The notes beneath the pieces are model-generated. The model saw only the letters and a list, made by a program, of their open reading frames with translations, was not told where the DNA came from and ran no database searches. A stretch of 53,751 bases of DNA. Source: a virus. Taxonomy: Duplodnaviria > Heunggongvirae > Uroviricota > Caudoviricetes. The DNA is taken from IMG/VR virus record IMGVR_UViG_2698536392_000015, positions 1 to 53,751 of that record; one strand, given 5' to 3'. A program made the translations under genes and the position numbers. Positions 12,115-51,918 of the stretch are shown one piece after another; position 1 is the stretch's first letter; every line of letters starts with the position of its first letter.

Positions 12115-12430
12115 CGTGCGGGTATTACTTAGACCTGTTCTGGTGCCTGAGCTTGGGCTGGTGGTCCTTAAGCCGGGCCGTGAATCCATACAGATATTTC
12201 ATAATCCTCGAGTGCTGGTGGAACCGGAACCAAAAAGCATGCGTAATCTGCCATCCGGAGTCGTTCCTGCCGTTCGCCAGCCGCTGGCGGAAGACAAAAC
12301 ATTGCTGCCGTTTTTTAGTAACGAACGGGTGATTCGTGCTGCTGGCGGCGTTGGCGCATTGTCCGACTGGCTATTACGTCATGTTACATCCTGCCAGTGG
12401 CCTAATGGCGATTACCATCATGTAACCAAG
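12077..12430 (+). pseudogene. Coding-like ORF running into the Mu-like left end, probably a host prophage gene disrupted by the insertion
   Basis: ORF stays open up to the junction and stops just inside the Mu-like end; C-terminal region is protein-like. Confidence 0.35.
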
Positions 12431-12600
12431 TGAATCATTTGATACCGACAAGGGTTTTAGTGAAAGGAGGTGAAATCACCTGTAAGATGCTGAAATAAAA
12501 CAGGTGATGTATAGTTCGGACGGAAAACTCTTTTTGATACCGACTGCTCAACAAATAGTCAAAAGATCAAAAAACGGCGACACATTTGATACTGCTAATT
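12431..12600. repeat. Left-end transposase-binding repeats (attL, L1-L3 like)
   Basis: TTTGATACCGAC at 12438 and 12533, TTTGATACTGC at 12585; spacing resembles Mu L1/L2/L3. Confidence 0.6.
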
Positions 12601-12776
12601 TACCCTTAAAATCTTCTTCAAAACATCTTCAAACTGCCAAAATGCTCACATAATCGATCTAACTATAATCAGTATGATAATCATCATGAATTACTATTCA
12701 ATAGCGTGATTATCTTGGGATGAGTCATATGATCTCTATATGTATTTACAGCACCACCTCATGATAGCGATGGCGC

Positions 12777-13388
12777 TTAACCAACAACATTTTTCTTTAC
12801 TGTCACTGCCCCTGATTCCTGGGTGGCGTTATTGCTCGAGTTGTACTTCTCAATAACGCGCAAAATCTCTTTGTCTGTTTCTTCACTTCCCGCCATTCCT
12901 ATCTTTATTGCATTTTTTAGTACGGGACGTAATGGCAAGGCATCAATGATGCTTTCTACCGCATCCTGGCTGATTGTAGATGTATTCATTGCTGCCAGCC
13001 TGACAAGGTTGTTAGTACCTTCTCGCCTGATGAATGTAAGGATTAATTGCTTCTCTTGGGGGCTTAGAGAGCTAAGCGCCTGATCAATACCCGAACCTGA
13101 ATCGCAATTATTTTCGATTTTTCCGCATTCATCTTCGTTCTTGCCTGTGGCCAACCATTCGAGTGAACAATTACAGGCTTTAGCTATTAAGGCCAGTTTA
13201 TCCAAAGGAGGGAAGTTTTTCCCCTTCCTGTAATTTCTTACTGTGGCTTCAGATAGTCCACAAAGGGTCGCCAGTTCGACGTTTGTCATGTCTCCCATAG
13301 CCATAGCTAAGCGTTCTGAAAATCGGTTTATTCCTTCCATATCAATAAACCGTTCCGCACTGGATACGGTTTTTTCTGCCTTATCCAT
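12777..13388 (-). CDS. Mu-like prophage repressor (XRE-type HTH)
   Basis: HTH (MTNVELATLCGLSEATVRNYRKGK); leftward gene at the left end, divergent from ner. Confidence 0.7.
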   Translation of the reverse strand: MDKAEKTVSSAERFIDMEGINRFSERLAMAMGDMTNVELATLCGLSEATVRNYRKGKNFPPLDKLALIAKACNCSLEWLATGKNEDECGKIENNCDSGSGIDQALSSLSPQEKQLILTFIRREGTNNLVRLAAMNTSTISQDAVESIIDALPLRPVLKNAIKIGMAGSEETDKEILRVIEKYNSSNNATQESGAVTVKKNVVG

Positions 13389-13544
13389 ATAACCCCCTAT
13401 AAAACAAAGAAATTATCGATATCGCATTTAATTTCGATGCGCTCGCAAAAAACCGTTGATATCGAATTATTTTGCGATTATGATTTACCTAAATCGATAA
13501 CCGGTTTTGATTATCGGTTCAGGTAAACATGAGAGGATCACACA
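13389..13544. promoter_or_regulatory. Operator/early promoter region between repressor and ner
   Basis: Multiple CGATA/TATCG-centred repeats (ATCGATATCG, TTGATATCGAAT, AATCGATAACC, GATTATCGG). Confidence 0.5.
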
Positions 13545-13811
13545 ATGAGGGTATCCAGACAAGCATCGAATAATTTGTTTGTTCGAGAGGGGTGTGACTG
13601 GTCTGCTAAAGCGGTATATGCAGCCCTTGAAAACAAAGGCACAGACCTCCCTGAACTGGAAAGGGAGTTAGGATTAAAAAGCGGATCAATGCGCAATGTG
13701 TTTTACCGCCAGTGCCGTAAATACGAAGCCGCCATCGCCGAAAAAATAGGGGTTGAACCTGCTGTAATCTGGCCCAGCAGATACCAGGTGGACGCCAGAG
13801 AAGTGGCTTGA
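13545..13811 (+). CDS. ner: Ner-like DNA-binding protein
   Basis: C-terminal ...AVIWPSRYQ motif as in Mu Ner; position between repressor and transposase. Confidence 0.7.
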   Translation: MRVSRQASNNLFVREGCDWSAKAVYAALENKGTDLPELERELGLKSGSMRNVFYRQCRKYEAAIAEKIGVEPAVIWPSRYQVDAREVA

Positions 13812-13821
13812 TGGGGGATGT

Positions 13822-15912
13822 ATGTGGGTAACAGCAAAAGAATGTGTTGGTCTTCCTGATTTACCAATGATGGAACATAACATTCGCCATCGACTCACAA
13901 AAGCAGCTGCGGGAAATGCAGCCATGTTACGCAAACGTAAGGGGACAAAAGCAATCGAATTTAATATCGATTGTTTGCCTTCTGGCGCGCAACAAGTATT
14001 GCGTGAACGTTATGCCCTTCAACTGATGACGCAAAAAGCCGATGAATCACCGGCTCCGGTGGTGACAAAGGCCAGACGCTCGCCTGCCGTGGTTGATGCG
14101 GTGGAGGCATATCGCGGATCACCACAACTGATGGTTGAACGCCTTAATGCCCTGACTGAAAACCAGCGCCAGGTGGCTGATGCACGAATCGCGATCGTCA
14201 GCGAAGTGATGAAAGTCGCGCAACAACCCGGTTTCAGCTGTGCGAAAGCTATCCGGTTTATCGTTGACAACCTGGCACGTTCGCAGCTGGACGAGCGCAT
14301 TGTGGCAATGGTTGAGACGGCGAACGCCAAAAAGGGAAACAGCCGCGCGTTGAGTGAAATCACGCTGAAACGCTGGATTGCAGCCTTTAACAAGGCGCAG
14401 AACGCCGCCGAACGCCTGCTTTTACTGGCACCGGGTAAGCGCCAGGAAATAAAAGCCGAAGATATTAACTGGCTGCCCGAATTTCTGGCGCAGTATCGCC
14501 AGTCAAACGGCCGACCAATGACCGAGGCTTACGAGGATTTTGTCGCTGAATGGCAGCACCGGCACGCTGATGAGCCTTATATGCTCGATATCATGCCGTC
14601 TTATGACACCATTCGCCGCGCAATGAAGAAACTGCCGGAAGTGGTGAAACAAAAAGGCCGGGTGACCGGCAGTGAATACCGCCAGCTTGAGGGATTCACG
14701 CGCCGCGACTGGTCAAAAATGCCGGTGAATTATGTCTGGATTGGTGACGGTCACGGCATGAAGCTGAAATGCGCACACCCGGTTCACGGTCGGCCATTTG
14801 CACCGGAAGTGACCTTTGTTATCGACGGTGGCACGCGCTTTGTGGTGGGCTGGAGCCTTGACCTGGCTGAAAATGTTTTCGCCGTAGCCGGTGCCATACA
14901 GCACGGCATTCGCCATCACGGCAAACCGTTTCTGTATTACTCGGATAACGGCTCCGGGGAAACCGCCGACATCCTGGATAAGGAGGTTGTGGGGATACTG
15001 CCGCGACTGGGGATTAATCACCCGACCGGGATTGCCGGTAATCCGCAGGGACGAGGCATTATCGAACGGCTTAACCGCACATTACCGATGCGCATAGCCC
15101 GTAAATACCGCACCTATTTCGGGAAAGGTGCAGATCGCGAGACGTTACGCAAAACCAACCGCGATTTACGCTCGGCATTTACTGCCCTGCAACAGGGCAA
15201 ACGGCTGAACGCCCGGCAGCAGTCAGCGATGCGTGATTTACCGTCCTGGTCTGAACTGATTGATGCCATTCGTGACGGTGTTGAGTGGTACAACAACCGG
15301 CCGCACGATGAATTACCCATGAAGCCGAACGGGAAACATTACAGCCCGGCGGAGTTCAGAAAAAAACGCCTGGCGGAAGAGGACACTGAAATTGAATGGC
15401 TGTCCGATGTTGAGCTGCGGGATATGTTCCGGCCGATGGTGGAACGCCCTGTAAGACGCTGTGAAATACGCTGGCTGAATAATATTTACTACGCGCCCGA
15501 GCTGCGTGACGAGCATGGCCGCAAGGTGCTTATCAGCTATGACATTCATGATGCCGAACGAATTACCGTTCGTCGCCCGGATGGCAGCGTGATTTGCGAG
15601 GCGGTATGGGACGGCAATAAACGCGAAGCCTTCCCGGTCAGCGCGGAATACTACAAACAGCAGCAGCGCCTTAAAGGTATGCGTAAACGCGCAGAGGAAA
15701 AAATCCGTGATGCCGAGGATGAGGTTGTCAACGTGCTGGAGCACAAGCCGCAGGAGCCATGGCTGGAAAACATATACCGCCCTGTGGGTAATACGGTGAC
15801 CGTTCAGCGACCAGCCGTTGATGATGAACCTGATGAAGAATACGAGCGTAATTTCCAGCGGGGATTGCAGTTGCTGGAAGCGAAATTAAAAGAAAATGAC
15901 CCGCTGGCCTGA
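13822..15912 (+). CDS. Mu-type DDE transposase
   Basis: 696 aa; N-terminal WVTAKECVGLPDLP resembles the MuA N-terminus; position and size match MuA. Confidence 0.9.
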   Translation: MWVTAKECVGLPDLPMMEHNIRHRLTKAAAGNAAMLRKRKGTKAIEFNIDCLPSGAQQVLRERYALQLMTQKADESPAPVVTKARRSPAVVDAVEAYRGSPQLMVERLNALTENQRQVADARIAIVSEVMKVAQQPGFSCAKAIRFIVDNLARSQLDERIVAMVETANAKKGNSRALSEITLKRWIAAFNKAQNAAERLLLLAPGKRQEIKAEDINWLPEFLAQYRQSNGRPMTEAYEDFVAEWQHRHADEPYMLDIMPSYDTIRRAMKKLPEVVKQKGRVTGSEYRQLEGFTRRDWSKMPVNYVWIGDGHGMKLKCAHPVHGRPFAPEVTFVIDGGTRFVVGWSLDLAENVFAVAGAIQHGIRHHGKPFLYYSDNGSGETADILDKEVVGILPRLGINHPTGIAGNPQGRGIIERLNRTLPMRIARKYRTYFGKGADRETLRKTNRDLRSAFTALQQGKRLNARQQSAMRDLPSWSELIDAIRDGVEWYNNRPHDELPMKPNGKHYSPAEFRKKRLAEEDTEIEWLSDVELRDMFRPMVERPVRRCEIRWLNNIYYAPELRDEHGRKVLISYDIHDAERITVRRPDGSVICEAVWDGNKREAFPVSAEYYKQQQRLKGMRKRAEEKIRDAEDEVVNVLEHKPQEPWLENIYRPVGNTVTVQRPAVDDEPDEEYERNFQRGLQLLEAKLKENDPLA

Positions 15913-15983: not shown

Positions 15984-16916
15984 ATGACTGATATTAACGA
16001 TGTAATCAAGACCATTGATGAACTTATTGATGGCGGCGTACTGACGCAGTATGCCATCGCCAGAGAGGCGGGAATTTCCGACGGCACATTATCGGCTTTC
16101 CGTAAGGGAAAATATAAAGGCGATAACGCTGCTGTGGCTGCTTCCCTGTGTTCCTGGTATGAGAACTGGAATAAACAAAGCGCACTGCCGGAACCGCCGC
16201 AGTTTGTGGAAACGCAGACAGTCCAGGAGCTGCGCGCGCTGTTTCAGGCGGTTCGCCTGATGGGCTGTATTAACGTTATTGTGGGCGTGCCGGGGGTAGG
16301 TAAAACGGCCACCGCCCGTAATTACTGCCAGGAGCAACCAAACACCTGGATGATCACCCTGTCTCCCGCGCATTCCAGCGTCACGGAGTGTCTGCTGGAG
16401 CTGGCCGATGCGCTGGGGATTGATTACACCCGCGCGAACAAGGGGGCATTATCCCGCGCCATCCGCCGTCGCCTGATGGGAACGCGTGGACTGGTGATTG
16501 TGGATGAGGCGGATCATCTTGGTATTGACGGTCTGGAGCAACTCCGGGCAATTCAGGACGCCACGGGGATCGGGATGGTGCTTATTGGTAACCCGCGCGG
16601 ATTGTTTAAAGGTGGACGCCGCGCCTTTGATGATTTATCGCGCCTGTTCAGCCGTCTTGCCCGTACAAAACAACTTCGCAAGGCCAAAAAGGCGGATGTG
16701 CTGGCCATTGCCAGGGCGTGGGGTATCAGTGGTGAGGCCGAGCTGGCTGTCATGCAGGCTATCGCTGAAAAACCGGGAGCATTACGTGTTTTGACGCATA
16801 CGCTTAACCAGGCGTGGATCACCGCCAGCGGTGAAGGTGCGGCGCTGACAGAAAAACATATTAATGCGGCTTTTAAAGAGGTTTACACCAACCCTGAATT
16901 ACTCTCGCAGGTGTGA
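15984..16916 (+). CDS. MuB-like AAA+ ATPase transposition protein
   Basis: Walker A GVPGVGKT, Walker B LVIVDEAD; follows the transposase gene. Confidence 0.9.
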   Translation: MTDINDVIKTIDELIDGGVLTQYAIAREAGISDGTLSAFRKGKYKGDNAAVAASLCSWYENWNKQSALPEPPQFVETQTVQELRALFQAVRLMGCINVIVGVPGVGKTATARNYCQEQPNTWMITLSPAHSSVTECLLELADALGIDYTRANKGALSRAIRRRLMGTRGLVIVDEADHLGIDGLEQLRAIQDATGIGMVLIGNPRGLFKGGRRAFDDLSRLFSRLARTKQLRKAKKADVLAIARAWGISGEAELAVMQAIAEKPGALRVLTHTLNQAWITASGEGAALTEKHINAAFKEVYTNPELLSQV

Positions 16917-18447: not shown

Positions 18448-18978
18448 ATGGTTAAACGTGTTACAAAATTAAAGGCCGCAGCCGAGGCTGCACCGCAGAC
18501 CCGCGAAGAAGTCAGCCGCGATATCCGCACCCTGGGCGATATTCAGCGAGAGGCGCTGCGCCTGGAAACGGCAATGAATGATGAAGTGGCAGAAATCACC
18601 GCCCGTTATACGCCGCAGATTGAAAACCTTAAAAAAGAAATCAAAGTGCTTTTTAAAGGGATTCATGACTGGTGTAAAACCAACCGCAATGAGCTGACGA
18701 ACGGCGGCGAAACCAAAACTGCCAATCTGACCACCGGAACGGTGTCATGGCGGCTGGGAAATCCATCATGCAGCGTCAGTCGTGATGTGGAAGGTGTGAT
18801 TGAAATGCTGCGTCGTATGGGGCTTGAGCGCTTCATCCGCACGAAAGAGGAAGTGAATAAGCAAGCTGTCCTGGCAGAGCCGGATGCGGTGAAAGGGATT
18901 GCTGGTATTAAGGTGAATAAAGGCGCTGAAAGTTTTCATGTCGAGCCTTTTGAACAGGACGCCGGACTGAATAAATAA
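18448..18978 (+). CDS. gam: Host-nuclease inhibitor Gam (Mu-type)
   Basis: Strong resemblance to Mu Gam as recalled (GDIQREALRLETAMND, ELTNGGETKTANLTTGTVSWR, RFIRTKEEVNK); RBS AAGGAA. Confidence 0.85.
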   Translation: MVKRVTKLKAAAEAAPQTREEVSRDIRTLGDIQREALRLETAMNDEVAEITARYTPQIENLKKEIKVLFKGIHDWCKTNRNELTNGGETKTANLTTGTVSWRLGNPSCSVSRDVEGVIEMLRRMGLERFIRTKEEVNKQAVLAEPDAVKGIAGIKVNKGAESFHVEPFEQDAGLNK

Positions 18979-22874: not shown

Positions 22875-23300
22875 ATGGCAGAAACTCAGATGAGCATGTT
22901 TGGTGGTGACAGTGAGCAACAGCACGCCCTTATCGACCGCCTTGATGACATCCCTGATGATGTTCTCAAAAAGAACTGGCCGCGGACCCTGTCTGAACTG
23001 GTTGAAGTCACCGGCGCAGAACTTCAGCGTCAGGGGATTGAGCCGGTACTGGCCGGTAAACTGGCACGCAAGGTGGCTGCGGCTCAGGCAGCCTATATGG
23101 GCGGACGGGGTTATTACCTGCCGGTCGGGGAATCTCTCTTTGCCGAGCTGCGAAACAATGAGATATTTTCGCGCTGGGACCGGGGCGAGAAAATTGAATC
23201 CCTTCGCCGCCATTACCGGATGTCAGAAACCCAGATTTATACCGTCATACGCGAACAGCGCCGTCTGCATCTGGCAAGAACGCAACCGCCACTTTTCTGA
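22875..23300 (+). CDS. Mor/C-family transcriptional activator
   Basis: C-terminal HTH ...LRRHYRMSETQIYTVIREQRR and YYLPVGESLF pattern typical of the Mor/C family; GGAGG RBS. Confidence 0.7.
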   Translation: MAETQMSMFGGDSEQQHALIDRLDDIPDDVLKKNWPRTLSELVEVTGAELQRQGIEPVLAGKLARKVAAAQAAYMGGRGYYLPVGESLFAELRNNEIFSRWDRGEKIESLRRHYRMSETQIYTVIREQRRLHLARTQPPLF

Positions 23301-23872: not shown

Positions 23873-23946
23873 ACCGCTTCTGGCGACCGCTCATGATAGC
23901 GCTGCTGTGTGCGGTACTGCTGTTACGGGGTGTCCTGTGGCTGCGG

Positions 23947-34757: not shown

Positions 34758-34760
34758 CAG

Positions 34761-36472: not shown

Positions 36473-36480
36473 GGTAAGAC

Positions 36481-36846: not shown

Positions 36847-36860
36847 TCAGGAAAAATAAA

Positions 36861-37337: not shown

Positions 37338-37464
37338 AGAAGCGGCAATAGTGCTGGGGATGGTGACCAGAAGCGGCCCGGAATGGGCACTTAACCTCCC
37401 CTTATCGCAACTTTACCGGCACTGCCAACAAACGGAAAAAATTCTCAGAACGAAGCAGTAATCC

Positions 37465-39519: not shown

Positions 39520-40864
39520 CACGCCGGGGCGTGGCTCCTTTCGTGGTGTACCGTTTCTGGTTTATCAGGAACAACGGGAACGGGGCGGACGTAACATTGT
39601 ACGCCGTGAATATCCTCTGCGGGAAAGCGGCGGCGCGGATGATTTGGGGCCAAAACTCCCGGAGTTTACATTCACGGCTCTTGTGATCGGCGATGATCTT
39701 CAGACGCAGCGAAGCCGCCTGCGGGATGCGCTGCGGGCACCCGGTGCCGGTGAACTGATGCACCCGGATTACGGCACCTTAAACGTGCTGATAAACAGCT
39801 TTGAAAGCCGTTATAACGCCAGCGAACAGGGAACGGTTGAGTTCACAATCAACGTGATCCCCGCCTGTGATGATACCGCACCGGCGGTGGCTGAAGACAC
39901 GGCTGCCGTTCTGGAGCAGAAAAGCGGTTCAGCAATGAATCAGTTGTTTAACACGCTTTCAGACGGCTGGACAGTGATTTCAGACGGCCTGCATGATGTG
40001 CAGGCCATGACCGACACCATCAGCGATAAAATTGATGCGCTGGAGAATGCAGTTTCGGGAATGGGGATTGTGCAGGATATCAGTGCCTTTACGGCCAGTT
40101 TCACTGCCCTGAAAGGGAATGCTGCCGCCCTGATTAATTCGCCCCATCGCATGGCTGAATCTCTGGCCGGAATGTTTGCGGTGCTGACGGGACTGCCCGG
40201 CGATCCTTCCCTGTCACTGACCGGGAAGGCCGCAACGCCGTCCGGCAGCCTGACCACAAACCGTGACAGCATGACAGAGCAGGCAATGCCGCAACTGTAC
40301 CGCACACTTTCTTCCCTGCGTTATACCCTCAGCGGGCAGGATGATCCGCAGATCCTGATTGGTCTGACGCCTGCGGCACAGAAAAATATCTGTCTTCTGC
40401 GGACAGTCATGCAGAGCGCAACCCTGGTGTCACAGGCGCAGACGGTAGGAAAACTGCTGGATCAGGTCGTCCGGCAGAGTGCGACGCACGTTCAGGATAC
40501 TGACCGGGAGGGCGGACTGGCCTGGCTGGAAAGTTCTGCCGATGTGCAGCGGCTCAACCGGGATTTGAGTGATGCCCTGGAACAACAGGTGCTGGATTTG
40601 TCCGCACAGGGCCATACCGGAACCGCCCTTGCATTACGTGATGCCAGGCTTGCGCTGACAGAGGATTTAACAACGCGTAGCGTTCATCTTCCCGGCGCTT
40701 CTCAGGTCATGGTGCGAACCACCGAACCGGCACTGGTCACACTGTACCGTGCCACCGGCAACAGCCGCCGCTGGCAGTATTTTGTCCGCAGGAACAACAT
40801 CCCTGATCCGGTTTTTGTTCCTGGTGGTCGCAGTGTGGAGGTGATCAGTGAGCAGCATGATTGA
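39506..40864 (+). CDS. DNA circulation protein (Mu N-like)
   Basis: 452 aa after tape measure. Confidence 0.7.
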   Translation: MASTDTPGRGSFRGVPFLVYQEQRERGGRNIVRREYPLRESGGADDLGPKLPEFTFTALVIGDDLQTQRSRLRDALRAPGAGELMHPDYGTLNVLINSFESRYNASEQGTVEFTINVIPACDDTAPAVAEDTAAVLEQKSGSAMNQLFNTLSDGWTVISDGLHDVQAMTDTISDKIDALENAVSGMGIVQDISAFTASFTALKGNAAALINSPHRMAESLAGMFAVLTGLPGDPSLSLTGKAATPSGSLTTNRDSMTEQAMPQLYRTLSSLRYTLSGQDDPQILIGLTPAAQKNICLLRTVMQSATLVSQAQTVGKLLDQVVRQSATHVQDTDREGGLAWLESSADVQRLNRDLSDALEQQVLDLSAQGHTGTALALRDARLALTEDLTTRSVHLPGASQVMVRTTEPALVTLYRATGNSRRWQYFVRRNNIPDPVFVPGGRSVEVISEQHD

Positions 40865-41972
40865 GCTGTATATTGGTGGCAGTATTTTTTCCGGCTGGCT
40901 GACAGTAAGCGTCCGTCGTTCTCTGGAGCATCTGGCCGGGTCGTTTGAACTGGGGCTGATGCTGCCCGGTGAGCGCATCCCCTCAGCCCTGCGGACCGGT
41001 CAGTCCCTGACGCTCAGAATTAACGGGCAGACGGTCATCAGTGGCTGGCTGGATCAGGTCAGTCAGCGGATCAGTGCAACCCGTCATCAGATCAGCATCA
41101 GCGGTCGGGATAAAACCGGCGACCTGGTGGACTGTGCCGCCATCCATCCCGGCAGTCAGTGGCGAAACCGGACGCTGGCACAGATTGCCGCAGATTTATG
41201 TGCGCCCTTCGGAATAGCCGTGCGCTGGCAGGTTAACGACGACACGGCTGCACGCCCCTTCAGCTCTTTTACCCTGGAAAACTCAGAAACCGTGGCGGAT
41301 GCGCTGACCCGTGCGGCCCGGCATCGTGGGGTGCTGGTGACCAGTAATGCTGACGGCGATCTGGTGTTCACCCAGGCAGGAAATCAGCAGACGGACAGAC
41401 TGGTGCTGGGGGAAAACCTGCTTGATGCCGATTACAACACGGACTGGCGCGGACGATACAGCGAATACCGTGTCCGGGGGCATGGACGCGGTGGTGGCAA
41501 ACGGGGAGACAGCGAATCCGCCGCCCGGCTGGCGGCCCCTGTGGGTGTCATCAGTGATGATCAGATCGGTCGCTACCGGCCGAAAATCATCCTCGCCGAT
41601 CAACAGACAGACACCTCCGGTGCACGGCAGCGCGCCCTGCGGGAGATGCGCCGTGCGGTTGCCCGTTCAGAACGGTTTTCCGCCACCGTGCGTGGCTGGT
41701 TCCGGGATGATGGCCGGTTATGGGATGTCAATCTGCTGACCGGTGTTTCGGCCCTGCGTTTCGGTATCGAACAGACTGAACTTCTGGTCTGCCAGGTGGA
41801 GTTTTTACTGGATGAGCAGAACGGGGAAGTCACCCGGCTGGTACTGGCACCGCGTGACGGCTTTATCGTTCCGGCAGAGCCGGACAGTAAGGGGCGTGGT
41901 GGTTCCGGTGATGATGTTGATGCCTTTATTCGCCAGCAGATGAAAAAACAGGGGATCAGCTTTGATGAATGA
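40848..41972 (+). CDS. Baseplate/tail protein (Mu P-like)
   Basis: 374 aa; conserved order. Confidence 0.7.
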   Translation: MSSMIELYIGGSIFSGWLTVSVRRSLEHLAGSFELGLMLPGERIPSALRTGQSLTLRINGQTVISGWLDQVSQRISATRHQISISGRDKTGDLVDCAAIHPGSQWRNRTLAQIAADLCAPFGIAVRWQVNDDTAARPFSSFTLENSETVADALTRAARHRGVLVTSNADGDLVFTQAGNQQTDRLVLGENLLDADYNTDWRGRYSEYRVRGHGRGGGKRGDSESAARLAAPVGVISDDQIGRYRPKIILADQQTDTSGARQRALREMRRAVARSERFSATVRGWFRDDGRLWDVNLLTGVSALRFGIEQTELLVCQVEFLLDEQNGEVTRLVLAPRDGFIVPAEPDSKGRGGSGDDVDAFIRQQMKKQGISFDE

Positions 41973-42576
41973 TGAAGTGTTCAGCCGCCTGATTGCCCCG
42001 GTAACTCGCGGCATTCGCCTGCTGTTTGGCCGCGGCGTTCTGACCGGCACACATGACGAACTGAAAATGCAGAATGTGCAGCTTACCGGCATGGACGGCG
42101 AAACCTTTGATGATGTGGAGCGTCCCCAGCAGTACGGGCAGATCAGCGTTCCCCTGCCGGGTGCGGAAACCTTTTTTGCCTGTCTGGGCGGGCAGCGTGA
42201 TCAGACCGTGGTGCTTGTGGTGGAAGACCGCCGCAGTCGCCCGACCGGACTCACTTCCGGAGATACCGGCGTGTATCACCATGAGGGGCACCGTATACGT
42301 CTTACCCGCGACGGGAGGATCATCGTGACCTGTAAGACGCTGGAGATTTACGCCGATGAAGGTGTTCAGGTGGATACACCGGAAGCCACTTTTACGGGCA
42401 ATGTCACGGTGGATAAAAACCTGCATATCAAAGGTAATCTGACCATTGACGGCACAGGAAAATCACAGGGTACGTTCACGATGTCCGAGGCTGTTATTGC
42501 CGGAATCACCTATTCCGGCCATGTACATCATGATAACGGTGAAGGCAGTAAGACAGGAGCGCCGGAGAATGGCTGA
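41962..42576 (+). CDS. Baseplate spike/assembly protein (Mu gp45-like)
   Basis: 204 aa; position. Confidence 0.65.
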   Translation: MMNDEVFSRLIAPVTRGIRLLFGRGVLTGTHDELKMQNVQLTGMDGETFDDVERPQQYGQISVPLPGAETFFACLGGQRDQTVVLVVEDRRSRPTGLTSGDTGVYHHEGHRIRLTRDGRIIVTCKTLEIYADEGVQVDTPEATFTGNVTVDKNLHIKGNLTIDGTGKSQGTFTMSEAVIAGITYSGHVHHDNGEGSKTGAPENG

Positions 42577-43006
42577 TATTGCAATTGTGTGGGATAAGGG
42601 ATGCGGTTCGCTGCAACTGAACGGTGCAGACCTGCTGACAGATGACAGCCTGATGACAGCGGTTCTGATTTCACTGTTCACTGACCGCCGGGCACTGACG
42701 TCGGATGAAATCCCTGATGGCACTCGTGACCGCCGGGGATGGTGGGGAGACAGCTTTCGCCAGCGTCCCATTGGCTCCCGTCTGTGGCTTCTCAGCCGGG
42801 AAAAAACGCTGGCCTCTGTGATAAGCCGTGCCCGTGCCTACGCGGATGAGGCGCTGGGCTGGCTCAGTCAGGATGGCGTGGCGTCATCCGTGGTCTGTCA
42901 TGCAGAACGTGTGGGGCACGCGCGGCTGGCGCTTTCGGTGCGCATAACCCTGCCTGATGGTTCGGTAAGACCCATGATTTTTTATGCTGATCTTAAGGGG
43001 GAGTAA
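42569..43006 (+). CDS. Baseplate protein (gp25/GpW-like)
   Basis: Start MADIAIVW at 42569; track ORF 42446..43006. Confidence 0.65.
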   Translation: MADIAIVWDKGCGSLQLNGADLLTDDSLMTAVLISLFTDRRALTSDEIPDGTRDRRGWWGDSFRQRPIGSRLWLLSREKTLASVISRARAYADEALGWLSQDGVASSVVCHAERVGHARLALSVRITLPDGSVRPMIFYADLKGE

Positions 43007-44088
43007 TGCCTTATCAGCCTTTACCGCTGGCACAGTTAATCACGCAGACACAGCAGGATATCAGCCAGCGTCTTCCCGGTTCGCAGCCGGGCGTGAATGA
43101 AACCACCCTGAATGCCATTGCGTATGCTCAGGCAGGATTGTCTGCACAGGAGCATGAACATCTGGCCTGGATTGCACGTCAGATCATCCCGACAGAAGCC
43201 GATGAAGCCGAGTTGCTGAAGCACTGCGCTTTCTGGGGTGTCATGCGTAAACCCGCCTCACGGGGTGACGGGCCGGTTCAGCTGATGCTGACCACGGATG
43301 CGGGGATCACGGAAGGTGTGCTTCTCCAGCGCAGTGACGGCGTGGTTTACCGCATCACCTCCTCACTGACCGGTAAAGCCGGTACGCTGAATGTCAGTGT
43401 GGAGGCCGAAAGTGCCGGTCGTGCGGGAAATGCCCCGGCAGGGACGAAACTGACGTTTGTCACTCCGCAGGCGGGGATCAACCAGACGGCCACGGTGACC
43501 GGAACAGGGATCACCGGTGGTGCGGATGTGGAAACGGTGCCGGAGCTGCTTTCCCGTCTGGTTTTCCGGGTGCAGAATCCGCCGTCCGGCGGTACACAGT
43601 ACGATTTTGAACGCTGGGCGCGTGAAGTGCCGGGGGTGACGCGGGCATGGTGCCGCCCGGAATGGCCGCAGGCGGGCTGCGTGGGGGTGACGTTCGTTCA
43701 GGACAACAACCCGGACATTTTTCCCGGTGAAGGTGATGTGAAACGTGTGGCGGATTATATCCGCAGTCATGATGATCCGGCGACCGGTCAGCCTGTCGGT
43801 CAGCCGCTGGGGCCGACGGTGACCGTGTTTAAACTGACCAATAAGCCAGTGCCCTTCAGTATCAGGATCATCCCGAAAACACCGGAGAATCAGGCGGCAG
43901 TAAAACAGGCACTGACCGACCTGTTATACAACGAATCCCGCCCCGGCGGTCTGGTTCTGGCGTCGTCTTTCTGGCGTGCCGTGGCGGGGGTGAAAAATCT
44001 GGAGGATTTTGAAGTGCGCAGCCCGCTGACGTCGGTTCAGGCGGGAGACAGCGAGCTGCTGACAGTGGGGGAAATCACATGGCTGTAA
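43006..44088 (+). CDS. Baseplate J-like protein
   Basis: 360 aa; position between gp25-like and tail fibre genes. Confidence 0.75.
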   Translation: MPYQPLPLAQLITQTQQDISQRLPGSQPGVNETTLNAIAYAQAGLSAQEHEHLAWIARQIIPTEADEAELLKHCAFWGVMRKPASRGDGPVQLMLTTDAGITEGVLLQRSDGVVYRITSSLTGKAGTLNVSVEAESAGRAGNAPAGTKLTFVTPQAGINQTATVTGTGITGGADVETVPELLSRLVFRVQNPPSGGTQYDFERWAREVPGVTRAWCRPEWPQAGCVGVTFVQDNNPDIFPGEGDVKRVADYIRSHDDPATGQPVGQPLGPTVTVFKLTNKPVPFSIRIIPKTPENQAAVKQALTDLLYNESRPGGLVLASSFWRAVAGVKNLEDFEVRSPLTSVQAGDSELLTVGEITWL

Positions 44089-44639
44089 CCCTCACTCCGC
44101 ATCAGCGCGCCCTGTTGCAGTTGCTGCCTGACGGACTGGCCTGGGACAAGCGGCCGTCATCCGTACTGGCTGCGTTATGCCTTGGCCTCAGCCATTCCAC
44201 CGAACGTGTTGCATGGACGGGAAAACAACTGCTGGCAGAACGTTTCCCTGACAGTTCCCGTCTGCTTCTGGAAGACTGGGAGCGTTATCTCGGCCTTCCC
44301 GAGTGTGATATGGCCGGAGCCACCATCACAGAACGACAGCGTTATGCCGGGAATAAATACCGGATGAAGCCTTCGCTGAACCGTGAATTTTATATCAGGT
44401 TTGCGGCAGAGTTTGGTTATGAAATAGATATTCAGCCATCACCGGATTCACAGTGGGTCAGTATTGTCACGATAAACAGTGAAACCGGCTACCGGAATAT
44501 GAATGTGCTGGATGATATTCTCACGCCGCTGCGTATTTATGAGGGCGGTGCGCTGGAATGTATTCTGAATCGTTATAAGCCTGCATGGCAGACGTTTATT
44601 TACGTGTATGCAAACAGTCACGAAGAGGAGAATATTTAA
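44079..44639 (+). CDS. Tail protein (Mu gp48-like)
   Basis: 186 aa between baseplate J and fibre. Confidence 0.65.
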
Positions 44640-45550
44640 TGTTCCATGTTGATAATAATTCCGGCGTGGCGAATATGCCTGAACTGGCTCCGGCGCAGAG
44701 TAATACCACCACCTGGTTTACCGAGGGGGACGGACAAAAAGGTATCAGCTGGATTGGTCAGGACTGGCTGAATATTCTCCAGGCCGAACTGCTGAATATC
44801 CTGGATGAAGCCAGTATTCAGCCGGATAAGGCGCAGTTAAACCAGCTTACGCTGTCTATTAAAGCCATTATCGCTGCGAATGCTTTTTCCCGGAAAAATA
44901 ACCTGAAAGAAATTGCTGATGCCGGTGCGGAGGCCCAGCGTCTGGCCCGTGGTTATCTTGGTCTGGGGACGCTTGCCACAAAAAACAGTCTTGGTCCCGG
45001 TGACGTTAATGCCCTGGCGAAGGATCAGAATCTCGCCGACCTGGAGAATAAGGAAACCGCCCGTAATAATCTTGATGTTTACAGCAAGAGCGAAGGTGAT
45101 AACCGTTACCTGCGCAGGGAACAGAATGGTAAAGATATTGCGAACAAAAGTGCCTTTATCGATAACCTCGGTTTACGGGAAACGGTAAACAGGGCTGCAA
45201 ATGCCCTGCCATCGAATGGTACAGCCGTAGCGGCAAACAAGCTGTCTGCGGCACGTAAAATTAACGGTGTTGCGTTCGATGGCACAAAGGACATCACTAT
45301 TACATCCGGGATGACCCAGACTACAGCAGACGGCAGATATGTTCGTAATGTGCAACTTGGTGCTCAGAGCCGCCACTCTCCTGCGGGTAATGAAGTCACC
45401 TGGGATTATAAAACGCCAGCAGGTTGTATGCTTTCCGGTATTCATGTACAGGATACCGGCTCCCGGTCTGCGGATAATATCGGTGGGGTCTATTATCGCC
45501 CGGTTCAGATTTATATTAATAATGCCTGGAGAACGGTGAGTTCAGTGTAA
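44639..45550 (+). CDS. Tail fibre protein S (constant part plus expressed variable part)
   Basis: ATG overlaps upstream stop (TAATG); C-terminal part lies inside the invertible segment and is paralogous to the minus-strand cassette. Confidence 0.75.
45157..45190. repeat. Left recombination site of the invertible segment (gix-like)
   Basis: AACCTCGGTTTACGGGAAAC, matching the gix core as recalled; inverted copy at 46524-46556. Confidence 0.7.
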
Positions 45551-45584
45551 ACCACAGAAAAGGGTGCTGAATGCACCCTCTGAA

Positions 45585-46109
45585 TTATTCCGGTTTTTCC
45601 GGCCAGGAAATCGCCTGGTAATGCCCCTCACTGGCAATATCATTAAGGTGCATTTCTTTAAGCTGTCGGATATACGCCATCCAGCGCGTCAGCTGTAATT
45701 TATTTTCATCGCTAATCATGTCCAGTTTTAATTCCGTTTTCCAGTCATCCACAGTTTCGTTGGCTTCCTGGAGCAGCGATGAGCGGCGCTTTTCAGCAAC
45801 CGTATTCCAGTTTACCGGCACCTTTGATATCAGGCCATCAGAAAACTGCCAGTTACCGTCAATATTCACACCTTCTGGCAGTTCGTCCACTTCAACAACA
45901 GTAAAACCTGCCGGATATAAAGCAGAGACATCTTCAGCAACAGAGCAGATAATACCCGTTACAGGCGAAATACAGAGTTTGTATTTCTTTGTGAAAAGCG
46001 GGATAGATTCATAAAAATCCCTTCCGTCCTCACTCTGGAAATACTGAACATCCTCACCATAGGGTTTGTGTTCCGGGTAATATCGTTTTACGTTAATAAG
46101 CTCCATCAT
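45585..46109 (-). CDS. Tail fibre assembly protein (Tfa/U-like)
   Basis: Start MMELINVKRYY at 46109 with AAGGTGA RBS; conserved Tfa-like C-terminus (...WMAYIRQLKEMHLNDIASEGHYQAISWPEKPE). Confidence 0.75.
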   Translation of the reverse strand: MMELINVKRYYPEHKPYGEDVQYFQSEDGRDFYESIPLFTKKYKLCISPVTGIICSVAEDVSALYPAGFTVVEVDELPEGVNIDGNWQFSDGLISKVPVNWNTVAEKRRSSLLQEANETVDDWKTELKLDMISDENKLQLTRWMAYIRQLKEMHLNDIASEGHYQAISWPEKPE

Positions 46110-46185
46110 TTCACCTTGTTTTTGTTGAAAAGACAAAATCATCATATATTTATTCAGATAATCTGTTTTTTGAACTACTGCACTT

Positions 46186-46546
46186 TTATGCGCTGGAAGC
46201 TGTTTTCCACGAACCATCTATCAGAAACTGAACAGGTCGATAATATGCGGTTACCGTTGCATTACCATCACCAGCGACATCAAGCCCTGTAAGTACGCAT
46301 CCGTCAGGAACTTCAAAAATATTATATTGCATTCCAATCGTTGACCTTGAACCTCTTCGAATGCTTTGAACATAACGTAAGTCAGCCACAGACTGCGTCA
46401 TCCCCGATGTAATATTTATATCCTGCGTTCCGTCGAAAGGAACGCCATTAATATTTCTTGGTGTGGCGAGTCTGTTTGCTGCCACGGCGGTTCCATCCGA
46501 TGGCAGGGCATCAGCAGCCTTATTTACCGTATCCCGTAAACCGAGG
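46186..46546 (-). CDS. Promoterless alternative tail-fibre C-terminal cassette (S'v)
   Basis: Paralogous to the S C-terminus (...NGVPFDGTQDINITSGMTQ vs ...[19 protein letters not shown]); open frame runs up to the inverted repeat. Confidence 0.65.
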
Positions 46547-46556
46547 TTTCAGGGAT
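46524..46556. repeat. Right recombination site of the invertible segment (gix-like, inverted)
   Basis: Reverse complement reads AACCTCGGTTTACGGGATAC. Confidence 0.7.
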
Positions 46557-46610: not shown

Positions 46611-47171
46611 ATGCTGATTGGCTATATACGCGTATCAACAAATGACCAGAACACCGGTTTACAAAGAAATGCGCTGGAATGTGCAGGATGTGAGCAGATT
46701 TTTGAAGACAAAATGAGCGGAAAAACAACGCAGCGGCCGGGACTGAAGCGGGCACTGAAGAAACTAAAACCCGGTGACACACTGATGGTCTGGAAACTGG
46801 ACAGGCTGGGGCGCAGTATGCGCCACCTTGTTGCGCTGACAGATGAATTACAGCAACAGGGGATAAATTTTCGTAGTCTTACTGACAACATTGATACGTC
46901 AACCCCCATGGGGCGCTTCTTTTTTCACATAATGGGTGCGCTGGCAGAAATGGAGCGTGAATTAATTGTCGAACGGACACGGGCTGGTCTTGCAGCTGCC
47001 CGTGAAAGGGGACGAACCGGCGGCAGACCCCGCCGTCTCACGCAGGAACAATACGAGCAGGTTGGGCGTTTACTGGCCGGGGGTGTCAGTCGAAGACAGG
47101 TGGCACTTATTTTTGATATCGGCCTTTCAACCCTTTATCGTTATTATCCTGCGAGCGTTTCGGAAAAATAA
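46611..47171 (+). CDS. gin: Serine DNA invertase (Gin/Hin/Pin/Cin family)
   Basis: N-terminal MLIGYIRVSTNDQNT...RNALECAGCEQIFEDK and C-terminal HTH match Mu Gin as recalled; adjacent to the invertible segment. Confidence 0.9.
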   Translation: MLIGYIRVSTNDQNTGLQRNALECAGCEQIFEDKMSGKTTQRPGLKRALKKLKPGDTLMVWKLDRLGRSMRHLVALTDELQQQGINFRSLTDNIDTSTPMGRFFFHIMGALAEMERELIVERTRAGLAAARERGRTGGRPRRLTQEQYEQVGRLLAGGVSRRQVALIFDIGLSTLYRYYPASVSEK

Positions 47172-47270: not shown

Positions 47271-49313
47271 ATGACGTCCAAATGGGTTCAACTATCATCA
47301 ATGCCCGGAAACTTTACCGTTAAAGTTTCCGGTGGTACAGCGGCATTTCTTGAGGCTCCCTTTCCTCCGGCCGAAACAAAAGGAGGAATGACATTTGCTG
47401 ACTGTCTCATCAGTTTTAATACACGGGATTGCCTGTGGGTAAGGCCAGTATCCGGTGATCCGAGTGTGGAAATTACCGGAGCGGGTATCGGTGCGGTCAT
47501 TCCGTTAAGTGCTGATGTTGCCGGTACTGCTGAACCGTCAGACTGGGATAATGCTGAAACACATACCCGTCCGTCAGGAAATGAAACTGCTTCCAGCTCC
47601 CCTTCCTGGTATTACGTGGTGGTTCTTGCTGGTCAGTCAAACGGTATGGCTTACGGTGAAGGTCTGCCACTGCCGGAGACATATGATCGCCCCGAACCGC
47701 GTATTATGCAGTTAGCCCGTCGCAGTACTGTCACGCCGGGAGGTAAAGTCTGTCAGTATAACGACATCATTCTGGCCGACCACTGTCTGCATGATGTGCA
47801 GGATATGAGTGGAAAAAATCACCCGAAAGCGGATGTGGCTAAAGGGCAATATGGCACCGTGGGTCAGGGGCTTCACATTGCCAAAAAACTGCTGCCGTTT
47901 ATTCCGGCAGATGCGGGGATTCTGCTGGTTCCCTGCTGCCGTGGTGGTTCTGCATTCACGGCGGGTGCTGACGGCACGTACAGTGACAGCATGGGTGCTT
48001 CAGAGGACTCAGCCCGATGGGGTGTGGATAAGCCGCTGTATAAGGACTTAATCAGCCGGACAAAAGCGGCACTGGCGAAGAACCCGAAAAACCGCCTGCT
48101 TGCTGTGGTGTGGATGCAGGGCGAGTTTGATATTGATGCGAAGCCGACGGAGCATTCTGCGCTGTTTCTGGCGATGGTGGAAAAATTCCGCGCAGACCTG
48201 GCTGAACAGGCGGAACAGTGTACCGGTGGCAGTGCTGCTGGCGTTCCGTGGATTTGTGGCGATACCACGTATTTCTGGAAACAGAAAAATGAACCGGCAT
48301 ACCAGGCAATCTATGGCGGCTACAAAAACAAAACAGATAAAAACATTCATTTCGTCCCATTAATGACAGATGAAAATGGCGCGAATGTACCTACCAACAA
48401 TCCGACAGAAGACCCGGATATTGAATCCATTGGTTATTACGGCTCAACGTGGCGTAACAATGCTGCCACCTGGACATCTGCGGACCGGGCCAGTCATTTC
48501 AGTGCCTGGGCGCGCCGTGGGATTATTTCCGACCGTCTGGCCACGGCTGTTCTGACTCACGCAGGGCGAACCACAGTAAAAGCCGATGTTCCATCTTCTG
48601 AAACTGATGCGCCAACGCCGTCACCTTCAGAAGCTGAAACAGTAACCACAACAACACTGCTGTCTTACCGTGCCAGTGAGTCTGAAGGGAAGCTGACCGA
48701 ACAGGGCTGGAGTGCAGGTGGAGGTAAAGCGGAAATTGTTGCCGATGAAGGTGCAACTGGTGGAACCGCGATGAAGCTGAGCAAGGAGACGGGTAAAGGA
48801 TCATGGCATCTGGAGCATGATGCCGGTACTGGCGCTGAACTGCTGAAAAATGGCGGCTTAATCAGTTGCCGCTTTAAGGCATCCGGTGAACTGGTGGCAA
48901 ATCAGTATGTCATTGCACTTTACTGGCCGGTTTCCTCTCTGCCGCAGGGTGTCACCCTGACAGGGGATGCAGGGAATAATCTGCTGGCAGCGTTCTACAT
49001 CCAGACAGACGCAAAAGACCTGAATGTGATGTACCACAATGCAAAAGTGGCGACAAATAACCTTAAGCTGGGAACCTTTGGCGCATTTGATAATGAGTGG
49101 CATACGCTGGCCTTCCGCTTTGCCGGGAATAACAGCCTTCAGGTGACGCCGGTTATTGATGGTCAGGACAGTACACCGTTCACGCTGACGCAGTCACCGG
49201 TCAGTGCATTTGCGGCGGATAAACTGCATGTGACAGACATTACCAAAAATGCGACTTACCCGGTGCTGATTGACAGCATTGTGGTGGAAGTGAAAAAAGC
49301 GGTAACAGAATAA
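47271..49313 (+). CDS. SGNH/sialate-O-acetylesterase-like hydrolase with C-terminal lectin-like domain (680 aa)
   Basis: VVLAGQSNGMAYGEG resembles the GQSN motif of carbohydrate acetylesterases; Thr/Ser/Pro linker then a beta-rich C-terminal domain. Confidence 0.65.
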   Translation: MTSKWVQLSSMPGNFTVKVSGGTAAFLEAPFPPAETKGGMTFADCLISFNTRDCLWVRPVSGDPSVEITGAGIGAVIPLSADVAGTAEPSDWDNAETHTRPSGNETASSSPSWYYVVVLAGQSNGMAYGEGLPLPETYDRPEPRIMQLARRSTVTPGGKVCQYNDIILADHCLHDVQDMSGKNHPKADVAKGQYGTVGQGLHIAKKLLPFIPADAGILLVPCCRGGSAFTAGADGTYSDSMGASEDSARWGVDKPLYKDLISRTKAALAKNPKNRLLAVVWMQGEFDIDAKPTEHSALFLAMVEKFRADLAEQAEQCTGGSAAGVPWICGDTTYFWKQKNEPAYQAIYGGYKNKTDKNIHFVPLMTDENGANVPTNNPTEDPDIESIGYYGSTWRNNAATWTSADRASHFSAWARRGIISDRLATAVLTHAGRTTVKADVPSSETDAPTPSPSEAETVTTTTLLSYRASESEGKLTEQGWSAGGGKAEIVADEGATGGTAMKLSKETGKGSWHLEHDAGTGAELLKNGGLISCRFKASGELVANQYVIALYWPVSSLPQGVTLTGDAGNNLLAAFYIQTDAKDLNVMYHNAKVATNNLKLGTFGAFDNEWHTLAFRFAGNNSLQVTPVIDGQDSTPFTLTQSPVSAFAADKLHVTDITKNATYPVLIDSIVVEVKKAVTE

Positions 49314-49923: not shown

Positions 49924-49961
49924 CAATACCGACCGGCAGGTTTCCCTGCCGGGTGAATTTG

Positions 49962-50132
49962 TTAATGCACGTTTTGTGTATTTTCCCTCCGGGGAGAACA
50001 GGCAGGACATATCAGCATCCTGAAACAGGAAGCATTTTTTGGTTTGTATGTCTTGCCATTTTGAGATCGAGAACGGCGATAGATGAGCTGTAAGGGAGTC
50101 TTACAGGCAGGGCAAACAGGCTCTTTATCCAT
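49962..50132 (-). CDS. Small zinc-ribbon protein (56 aa), divergent from the com/methyltransferase operon
   Basis: MDKEPVCPAC...CPAC; ATG preceded by AAGGAG. Confidence 0.45.
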   Translation of the reverse strand: MDKEPVCPACKTPLQLIYRRSRSQNGKTYKPKNASCFRMLICPACSPRRENTQNVH

Positions 50133-50541
50133 GATAAAGATCTCCTTTTTATGCATCTCTGCTTTACAGGAGACCGGGGAATATCATAGGATACGCCACG
50201 AGCTCGAAGTAAAGCATTGATGCAAAATTGTCTAAATCGGCCCAGAATAGTTCGCGCTATCTGGGTCGCCCTTTATGTATGTAGTATCCTGTTGATTTGA
50301 AACATACTACATATACGCGCGATCCTACCTTCACTGTATAAAAAGTCAATAAAATGATCATTTTATGATCGTTTTCACCACCTAACTCTTCGTTTTCTTT
50401 AAGTAAATAATCACCTCCCTGAATCATTGTTGATGACTTTTCAATCTATTTGTTGTATCAATTAAACAAATCGAATCGATCGTTTTTGTCGATCGATTGC
50501 ATGAGAAAGGCATCAACAACAAAGCAGGAGGTTATGCGGCC
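50133..50541. promoter_or_regulatory. AT-rich divergent control region with GATC cluster and palindrome upstream of com
   Basis: GATC at 50320, 50356, 50367, 50478, 50491; perfect 9-bp inverted repeat AATCGATCG-N7-CGATCGATT (50474-50498). Confidence 0.5.
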
Positions 50542-50727
50542 ATGTATCGAAACATACGGTGCCGACACTGCAATAAGCTACTGGCACGGGCCAGTTTCAG
50601 TTATCTGGAAGTAAAATGTCCGCGCTGCAAAACCCTCAATCAAATCACATCTCAGAGCGCCACAGAGCACCCCACATACACAAGGAAATCCTGCCGTGGG
50701 GAACAAGAAACATTACTTTCAGTCTGA
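50542..50727 (+). CDS. com: Com-like zinc-finger translational regulator
   Basis: MYRNIRCRHCNKLLARASFSYLEVKCPRCK aligns with Mu Com (MKSIRCKNCNKLLFKADSFDHIEIRCPRCK) as recalled; AGGAGG RBS; overlaps the downstream gene start. Confidence 0.8.
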   Translation: MYRNIRCRHCNKLLARASFSYLEVKCPRCKTLNQITSQSATEHPTYTRKSCRGEQETLLSV

Positions 50728-51748
50728 TAAGTCACTAACCTATGGTTCAGTATGCAGTGGTATTGAAGCTGCGACAGTAGCCTGGAGCAATCTTGGCTGG
50801 AAAGCCAGTTGGTTCAGTGAAATAGAGGACTTCCCGTCAACACTTCTTTCATATCGCTGGCCCCATATACCAAATCTTGGTGATATGGCTTTGCTTGCGC
50901 CTCGTATCAGGGATGGGCTTATTGAAGCACCAGATATTCTTGTAGGTGGAACTCCGTGTCAGGCATTCAGTATGTCAGGCAAACGAAAAGGCCTTTCAGA
51001 TCCACGGGGGCAGTTAACACTGTCTTTTGTTGAACTGGCGAATCAGATAGATACCGTTCGGGCATCGCTCAATAAATCCCCCTCAATAATCGTATGGGAA
51101 AACGTCACAGGAGTTTTAAGTAGCCATGACAATGCATTCGGTCATTTTCTTGGTGCGCTGGCCGGAGCAGGTTGCGCATTACAGCCAGCAAGGAAAAGAT
51201 GGGCAAACGCTGGTGTTGTGTCTGGACCATCGCGTATCGTCGCCTGGCGAGTACTTGATGCCCAATATTTCGGAGTCGCCCAGGCTCGCAGAAGAGTGTT
51301 TGTTGTGGCAAGTGCTGGAAAAAGGCTCGATCCCGGAAAGGTATTATTTGAGTTCCCGCCTGTGTCGCAGGGCGATAAAAACTATTACGGAAAGAAGAAA
51401 AAATCCGAATCCCTTCTTGATCAAGGCATTGAAGGAAAATTGCACCGATATTGCCTTGAAGCATTGCCAAAACGAACAGGCACAGTAATAGCTGGCTATA
51501 ACGGAACAACTAACCAGGACATGACTATGTCTGGTGGGCTCATAGTTGAAAGAGCGCCATATTCAAGGGTTCGTAGGTTGACGCCAACCGAATGCGAGAG
51601 GCTACAAGGTTTTCCCGATGGATATACAGATATTCCATGGAAAAATTCATCTCCAGCTCATCGTTATAAGGCCATTGGAAATTCAATGCCTGTACCGGTC
51701 ATGAAATGGATTGGTCGAAGAATACAGGAAGCGTTAAACGAAGTTTAA
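50696..51748 (+). CDS. DNA (cytosine-5)-methyltransferase
   Basis: C5-MTase motifs: GSVCSGIEA (I-like), GGTPCQAFSMSGKRKG (IV), IIVWENVTGVLS (VI), AQARRRVFVVA (VIII), RRLTPTECERLQGFPDGY (C-terminal); GTG start overlapping com. Confidence 0.85.
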   Translation: MGNKKHYFQSDKSLTYGSVCSGIEAATVAWSNLGWKASWFSEIEDFPSTLLSYRWPHIPNLGDMALLAPRIRDGLIEAPDILVGGTPCQAFSMSGKRKGLSDPRGQLTLSFVELANQIDTVRASLNKSPSIIVWENVTGVLSSHDNAFGHFLGALAGAGCALQPARKRWANAGVVSGPSRIVAWRVLDAQYFGVAQARRRVFVVASAGKRLDPGKVLFEFPPVSQGDKNYYGKKKKSESLLDQGIEGKLHRYCLEALPKRTGTVIAGYNGTTNQDMTMSGGLIVERAPYSRVRRLTPTECERLQGFPDGYTDIPWKNSSPAHRYKAIGNSMPVPVMKWIGRRIQEALNEV

Positions 51749-51824
51749 ACCTAAGCAAAAGACATTATGAAGTTGGTTTTTGTGCCGTTAAAAGATGTCT
51801 TTAAGGAGTGCAAAGGAAAGCGCC

Positions 51825-51918
51825 AATTTAGTATCAAAAAAGATGCTTATCGGCGCTTTTCATCGGTATCAAATGAAATGCAAATCGGTATCAAAAAAAT
51901 CGCCGCGCTATAATCACA
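51825..51918. repeat. Right-end transposase-binding repeats (attR, R1-R3 like)
   Basis: GTATCAAA at 51831, CGGTATCAAA at 51864 and 51886, inverted relative to the left-end motifs. Confidence 0.6.

Follow-up and report, generated by a model that had tools for sequence, protein, structure and literature searches.

Analysis of the virus record IMGVR_UViG_2698536392_000015, a stretch of 53,751 nucleotides (referred to here as the window), identified a complete and apparently intact Sp18-type Mu-like transposable prophage at positions 12421-51912 (39,492 bp, plus strand). This phage belongs to the Sp18 group, and it almost certainly entered the nin region of a resident lambdoid prophage by DDE transposition, its target being codon 102 of ydfU. 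The ends of the element, 5'-TGTAACC...GCGCTATA-3', were defined from the empty site and from 10 other insertions with identical termini. The element is bordered by two copies of the target sequence ATCA, at 12417-12420 and 51913-51916, and comparison of independent insertions showed that the Sp18-type family generates a 4-bp target duplication and has 5'-TG...TA-3' ends, rather than a 5-bp duplication and TG...CA ends. An initial annotation, made from the sequence alone, had described a complete Mu-like prophage nested in a lambdoid prophage; this description was upheld by the gene set of the element (repressor, Ner-like regulator, transposase, MuB, Gam, Mor, lysis, head, contractile tail, invertase and Com) and by the lambdoid genes of its host.

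Insertion into ydfU and exact ends of the element

Segments of 800 bp from each flank of the element were joined and searched against all complete Escherichia coli genomes (n=5,426). At least 80% of this query was covered in 3,488 genomes, and in two of them, 90-3040 and 2013C-3492, the joined flanks matched an intact ydfU with 99.4% identity and no other gap. In both genomes the matching gene is the annotated ydfU ("DUF968 domain-containing protein", WP_106888090.1), preceded by rem and followed by RusA. The DUF968 gene that the initial annotation had seen as apparently split is therefore ydfU, whose reading frame enters the element on the left and resumes, with the C-terminal part, after the right end.

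The locus of E. coli 90-3040 containing the intact ydfU (L001) was used as the reference for the flank alignment. By blastn, positions 10964-12420 of the window correspond to L001 11332-12788 and positions 51913-53751 to L001 12785-14623; the two alignments share exactly 4 bp. The empty site reads ...GATTACCATCA/CACTGAAAC... (in a longer form, ...GGCGATTACCATCA/CACTGAAACAGTC...) and contains ATCA once. In the window, the left junction reads ...CCATCA(12420)/TGTAACC, the longer phage side being TGTAACCAAGTGAATC, and the right junction reads ...GCGCTATA/ATCACACTG (in a longer form, ...CGCCGCGCTATA(51912)/ATCA(51916)CACTGAAAC...). Since the flank alignments overlap by exactly 4 bp, the flanks have not been rearranged; just ATCA is present at both junctions. 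The flanks are exactly contiguous and the element is a simple insertion.

The comparison with an uninterrupted homologue had been proposed in the initial annotation, which placed the element at 12421-51918 and considered the boundaries to be approximate or the flanks rearranged. The alignment to 90-3040 established that the flanks are contiguous and defined the exact ends and the 4-bp duplication: the start at 12421 was exact, the right end is located at 51912, 6 bp inside the position proposed, and the suspicion of a rearrangement was unfounded.

The N-terminal part of ydfU (12116-12420, plus strand) aligns with positions 12484-12788 of L001. Its open reading frame (ORF), ending in ...SCQWPNGDYHH, enters the phage end and continues for three codons (VTK) up to a stop codon at 12431-12433. 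The C-terminal part (51917-52661, plus strand) is 99.9% identical to L001 from position 12785 onward; past position 51917, approximately, the reading continues ...TETVIHRYGTGAMVLCWHCDNQ... up to a DUF968-type C-terminus. An ATG codon at 51795, inside the right end of the phage, is in frame with this part of ydfU and opens a fusion ORF of 288 amino acids (51795-52661), which is probably fortuitous. A junction-spanning query did not find the same ydfU insertion in any genome of the 5,426-genome collection.

The left end of the element was found in 232 of these genomes and the right end in 215, in each case under many different genes. Both junctions were gathered for 10 further independent insertions, which together with the copy in the window gave a set of 11. 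The duplications were AATT at comEC, AGAG at ttdB, TCTT at dacD, GATA at a glycosyltransferase gene, ATCA at flgK, TAAA at sorM (Sp18 of strain Sakai), ATCA at vasI/tagO, AGCA at ybbA, GATC at phsC and AGAG in an Stx1a phage. The element starts with TGTAACC and finishes with GCGCTATA in all copies examined, and the four bases preceding TG are the same as the four bases following TATA in 11 out of 11 insertions, a match expected by chance once in 256 per insertion. In nine of the 11, the fifth base upstream is not the A with which the element terminates, and this excludes a 5-bp duplication. The initial annotation was thus correct in reporting that no 5-bp duplication could be found; its expectation of 5 bp and TG...CA ends does not apply to this family.

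A 4-bp "duplication due to insertion of Mu_JNE122137", with the same ends, was annotated by the depositors of GenBank LC727895.1. This annotation was the sole record found; the literature searches yielded neither a published statement of a 4-bp duplication for Sp18-type phages nor a biochemical study of it. According to a paper from 2021, transposable phages leave duplications of 5 or 6 bp, and all described Mu and B3-like phages have TG-CA ends (PMC8705779). A search for a 5-bp duplication and TG...CA ends misplaces the right end of Sp18-type elements by 4-6 bp and may prompt a false suspicion of rearrangement; the practical value of the finding is mainly for annotation.

Two observations concern the termini of other copies. 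The Sakai chromosome (NC_002695.2, locus L011) has Sp18 annotated at locus positions 472-39230, and the termini defined here are at 471-39225; the annotated feature begins 1 bp inside the left end and overshoots the right end by 5 bp. In strain 8479, the right end with a phsC flank is located on the chromosome record (NZ_CP074994.1, L008), and the left end that belongs to it, also flanked by phsC and with the same GATC, on a 167-kb 'plasmid' record (NZ_CP074995.1, L014). This could be due either to an assembly problem at a repeated phage or to a phage-mediated rearrangement.

Both ends contain three copies of a motif, TTTGATACYG, which are putative transposase binding sites. At the left end (12438-12594, plus strand) exact copies start at 12438, 12533 and 12585, that is 18, 113 and 165 nt from the terminus. 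At the right end (51829-51895, minus strand) the copies start at 51895, 51873 and 51838, 18, 40 and 75 nt from the terminus; those at 51886-51895 and 51864-51873 are exact and the one at 51829-51838 has one mismatch. With up to one mismatch, 22 matches to the motif were found in the window, against 6.5 expected. Only with the right end at 51912 is the distance to the first motif 18 nt at both termini. The presence of several putative subterminal sites in inverted orientation at both ends is a feature of Mu-like phages, and the layout resembles that of Mu, with its L1-L3 sites at the left end: there are three subterminal sites per end, similarly spaced. The three inverted copies per end and the Mu-like spacing noted in the initial annotation were accordingly found again.

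Alternative explanations and proposed mechanism

Three other explanations of these observations were considered. The element might be a cryptic and immobile remnant, complete in look only, which we regard as unlikely. Four small early ORFs of the relative in 90-3040 are without counterpart in the window, and the repressor and Ner differ from those of this relative and of Sp18, which speaks for this reading; but the genes coding for the transposase, MuB, Gam, Mor, the lysis functions, all head and tail proteins, the invertase, Com and the methyltransferase are full length and contain no stop codons. Also, copies at other loci match the last 996 bp at the right end with 100% identity. The left end with the repressor region is 99.1-99.8% identical to copies at no fewer than 10 other loci, and this implies that the variant has been mobile recently.

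It is very improbable that the element is a Mu-type insertion of the canonical kind, ending in TG...CA (12421-51916 or 12421-51918), and that its 5-bp duplication was later mutated or was lost by rearrangement of the flanks. The comparison of the 11 junction pairs refutes this reading, unless those assemblies have a systematic error in common at the right end. A CA can indeed be found at the right junction, where the window reads ...TATAATCA/CA, and several other insertions also read TATAATCA. However, the bases following ...GCGCTATA vary among insertions (AATT, AGAG, TCTT, GATA, TAAA, AGCA and GATC), and each of these is identical to the 4 bp that precede TG in the same copy. Because the varying bases match their own left junction, and because ATCA is present once in the empty site, the ATCA in the window is target DNA. 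The disagreement of the fifth base in nine of the 11 insertions and the exact contiguity of the flanks also speak against this explanation.

Several other placements of the ends were tried and rejected. The models with a 5-bp duplication (TG...CA with the element ending at 51916 or 51918; an element finishing in ...GCTAT; a duplication including the T of TG) all failed over the 11 junction pairs. A right end at ...TATAATCA was suggested by BLAST matches running on to ATCA and by two other copies that read alike; the left flanks of these copies show ATCA, AGCA and GATC, which are target duplications. The BLAST ranking had enriched for flanks resembling the query, hence the many matches that extended into ATCA.

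An assembly chimera of a Mu-like phage contig with prophage contigs is the least credible of the three, for although multi-copy Mu-like phages can confuse assemblers, and in strain 8479 the two ends of one insertion are found on different records, a chimera would not yield two junctions at the exact phage termini with a matching 4-bp duplication that is single in the empty site.

An insertion by DDE transposition of an Sp18-group phage is in agreement with the intact genes for the transposase and the MuB-type ATPase, with the intact ends and with the insertion of the family at many different loci. Some points weigh against it. The source genome is outside the complete-genome collection and the ydfU insertion was seen in one assembly; the activity of this copy is predicted from its sequence; binding of the transposase to the end motifs is deduced only from their position, copy number and conservation; and in the immunity region and some early genes the element departs from Sp18.

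The steps of the insertion may be outlined on the basis of Mu transposition, from which binding, nicking, strand joining and gap repair are taken. The transposase would bind the six subterminal sites and nick the 3' ends, with cleavage after ...TG(CA) on the left and after ...TA on the right. MuB would deliver the target DNA, the 3' ends would be joined to target phosphates staggered by 4 nt, and gap repair would then make the 4-bp duplication. A simple insertion would be expected of non-replicative integration after infection and not of intramolecular replicative transposition; the simple insertion and the contiguous flanks in the window fit integration following infection. The prophage is probably still capable of transposition and packaging.

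As a consequence of the insertion, YdfU would be truncated after residue 102, and 39.5 kb would now separate the early and nin genes of the host prophage from its RusA, Q-like and late genes. The insertion probably cripples the host lambdoid prophage.

Gene content of the element and of its host prophage

The genes of the element form a run on the plus strand from about 13.5 to 51.7 kb, with a GC content of 52-60% over most of it; the composition of the flanks differs. The 57 RefSeq-annotated proteins of the copy found in 90-3040 were compared with the window, and 53 of them had a counterpart without internal stop. Most counterparts are 75-100% identical and full length, including all the packaging, head, tail and lysis genes, Gam and Mor; apart from divergent proteins of the immunity and early regions, every counterpart aligns over its full length or nearly so. 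The element has heteroimmune variants of the repressor and of Ner, and the four small early ORFs of the 90-3040 copy are replaced.

The repressor gene (12777-13388, minus strand) codes for a CI-type helix-turn-helix protein (Pfam Phage_CI_repr and HTH_3) that shares just 26% identity with its equivalent in the 90-3040 copy; in DNA sequence, the region is 97% identical to the copy in JE86-ST05. It is followed on the plus strand by a Ner-like early regulator (13545-13811; Pfam HTH_35, E = 1.7e-20) and by a Mu-type transposase of 696 amino acids (13822-15912). Pfam Mu-transpos_C (E = 2e-17) and HTH_Tnp_Mu_1 were detected in the transposase, both above cut-offs, together with weak rve matches. BLASTP aligned the protein colinearly with MuA (22% identity, E = 2e-13). 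Its identity to the transposases of Sp18-group copies is 93.5-94.8%, with 93.5% for the 90-3040 copy. A phmmer search against PDB sequences returned retroviral integrase cores and no MuA chain. The adjoining gene (15984-16916, plus strand) codes for a MuB-type AAA+ transposition ATPase (Pfam Phage-MuB_C, E = 5e-25, and AAA_22), 48% identical to Mu B.

All the following genes are on the plus strand unless stated. The Gam host-nuclease inhibitor (18448-18978) shares 96.6% identity with the Gam that RefSeq annotates in the 90-3040 copy, and the Mor activator of late transcription (22875-23300) is 99.3% identical to the RefSeq-annotated Mor. The lysis genes (23372-24537), coding for a lysozyme, an endopeptidase and an Rz1-like protein, are 98-100% identical to annotated homologues. 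The packaging and head region (25354-33354) includes a Gp27-like small terminase, the large terminase (25935-27599), a DUF935 portal, a MuF-like protein, gpG, a protease and the major head protein gpT, all of them full length, without internal stops and with 76-100% identity to their annotated homologues. Genes for head completion and then for a contractile tail (sheath, tube, tape measure, gpN, baseplate and tail fibre) occupy 33398-45550; they too are full length, with 69-100% identity to their annotated homologues. In several relatives, RefSeq places a minus-strand 'tRNA-OTHER' between the genes for the MuF-like protein and gpG (L002 19519-19598, approximately 30505-30585 of the window); ARAGORN found no tRNA anywhere in the window.

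Positions 45164-46548 are probably an invertible host-range segment, with an arrangement unlike that of the Mu G segment. Two inverted repeats of 181 nt, at 45164-45344 and 46368-46548, are 76% complementary and enclose a tail-fibre assembly gene (45588-46106, minus strand; Pfam Caudo_TAP) and an alternative C-terminal fragment of the tail fibre. The segment is adjoined by a Gin-type serine DNA invertase (46611-47171; Pfam Resolvase, E = 1e-51, and HTH_7). Between gin and com there is an accessory gene of 680 amino acids (47271-49313), with matches to the Pfam SASA carbohydrate-esterase family (sialate O-acetylesterase type; E = 8e-12) and to DUF6645 (E = 2e-72). In the related lambdoid prophage of 90-3040 there is also a gene (L001 16538-18391) whose product carries the annotation SASA family carbohydrate esterase.

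At the right end, the zinc-ribbon regulator Com (50542-50727; Pfam Zn_ribbon_Com, E = 6e-13) is 100% identical to the RefSeq-annotated Com, and its gene overlaps the start of the next one, which codes for a C5 cytosine DNA methyltransferase (50696-51748; Pfam DNA_methylase, E = 2e-42) in the position of mom. When the region 50480-51748 was compared with Sp18, com and its upstream region were nearly identical, and the homology ended about 10 nt past the shared GTG start of the downstream gene; beyond this point Sp18 has mom, whereas the element in the window has the C5 methyltransferase. On this alignment, it seems that the Com-controlled translation start was kept and the modification enzyme exchanged. 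The right end with com and the methyltransferase was found, at no less than 99.8% identity, in 10 complete genomes. A similar arrangement has been described in B3, FluMu and Pnm1, in which the gene after that of the Com homologue codes for a DNA methyltransferase and not for Mom (PMC3299994); those enzymes are adenine methyltransferases, and the one encoded here is a C5 cytosine methyltransferase.

The host genes around the insertion code for YdaS/YdaT, a Q-antiterminator-like protein, RusA and a DUF1133/Q-like protein. Downstream of the insertion, the RusA and DUF1133/Q-like genes (52674-53572, plus strand; Pfam RusA and DUF1133) occur in the same order as in the annotation of L001. In blocks, the host sequence shows 95-99.9% identity to the 90-3040 prophage, where holin, lysozyme, terminase and portal genes come next. 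With its early, nin and late-regulator genes and its synteny to an annotated lambdoid prophage, the resident element is, as judged from gene content, a lambdoid prophage of the Qin/Rac type.

On the minus strand, at 8649-10805, a cassette of low GC content (34-38%) was observed between a Q-like gene and hokD/rem. It contains three ORFs of 234, 142 and 365 amino acids, none of which gave a match in Pfam, PADLOC or NCBIfam. In 90-3040 this slot contains unrelated genes annotated as 'sce7726 family' and 'beta family protein'; the latter also has 365 amino acids and is unrelated to the ORF of this length in the cassette. The slot may be a variable accessory or defence slot.

Comparison with known transposable phages

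The element and Sp18 of strain Sakai (NC_002695.2, in sorM) share 77-97% nucleotide identity by blastn, in colinear mosaic blocks over about 33 of the 39.5 kb. They have in common the terminal sequences, the 4-bp duplication and the gene order, and they differ in the immunity region, in the block from tail sheath to baseplate (about 78-80% identical), in the com-mom operon present in Sp18 and in the insertion site. Sp18 has been described as an intact Mu-like prophage that is packaged but not circularised, and was reported to have an invertible host-specificity region (PMC2669165). The Mu-type DDE transposase, the adjacent MuB-type AAA+ partner, the varied loci with short duplications and the synteny with Sp18 all place the element in the Sp18 group.

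Mu_JNE122137, located in the Stx1a-converting phage Stx1_JNE122137 (LC727895.1), belongs to the same family. Its transposase is 94.8% identical, it is also nested in a lambdoid prophage, and it has TG...TATA ends and a 4-bp duplication, in that case AGAG; its target was an Stx1a phage, and the target here was ydfU of a Qin/Rac-like prophage. In O157 strains, Mu-like prophages occur at strain-specific sites (PMC7430833), and in CC119 Shiga-toxin-producing E. coli six of 10 Mu-like phages were located within mobile elements, several Stx phages carrying them (PMC10132054). Nested Mu-like insertion is therefore an ordinary kind of event, already documented in Shiga-toxin-producing E. coli, and the insertion in ydfU, by a phage that inserts at random, is new as a site but not in kind. 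The window adds one more case of a Mu-like phage disrupting a resident prophage in these bacteria, which bears on prophage inducibility and on genome typing.

The gene order of phage Mu (NC_000929.1, Muvirus), that is c, ner, A, B, gam, mor, lysis, head, contractile tail, an invertible segment with gin, and com at the right end, is also that of the element. Unlike Mu, the element has a transposase of 22% identity, a 4-bp instead of a 5-bp duplication, a right terminus TA instead of CA, and no mom. The 5-bp duplication, the TG...CA termini, the close sequence relation to Mu and the com-mom operon that characterize Muvirus are all lacking, and the element is Mu-like in organisation but is not phage Mu. 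Among isolated phages, the nearest transposases are those of Haemophilus SuMu (43%) and of Pseudomonas phages of the D3112/JBD type (about 29-30%), over about 90% of the length. In this tblastn search of the phage collection with the transposase, no Escherichia record was present among the organisms listed; no nucleotide search of the element against phages was made.

The combination of a transposase 22% identical to MuA with a MuB-type ATPase 48% identical to Mu B, an apparent 4-bp stagger and apparently asymmetric TG...TA ends makes it likely that the Sp18 group is a mechanistically distinct branch of Mu-type transposition. A 4-bp stagger made with a highly divergent transposase and a conserved MuB could offer a natural comparison with Mu for how transpososome geometry sets the stagger, a modest point, of interest to specialists.

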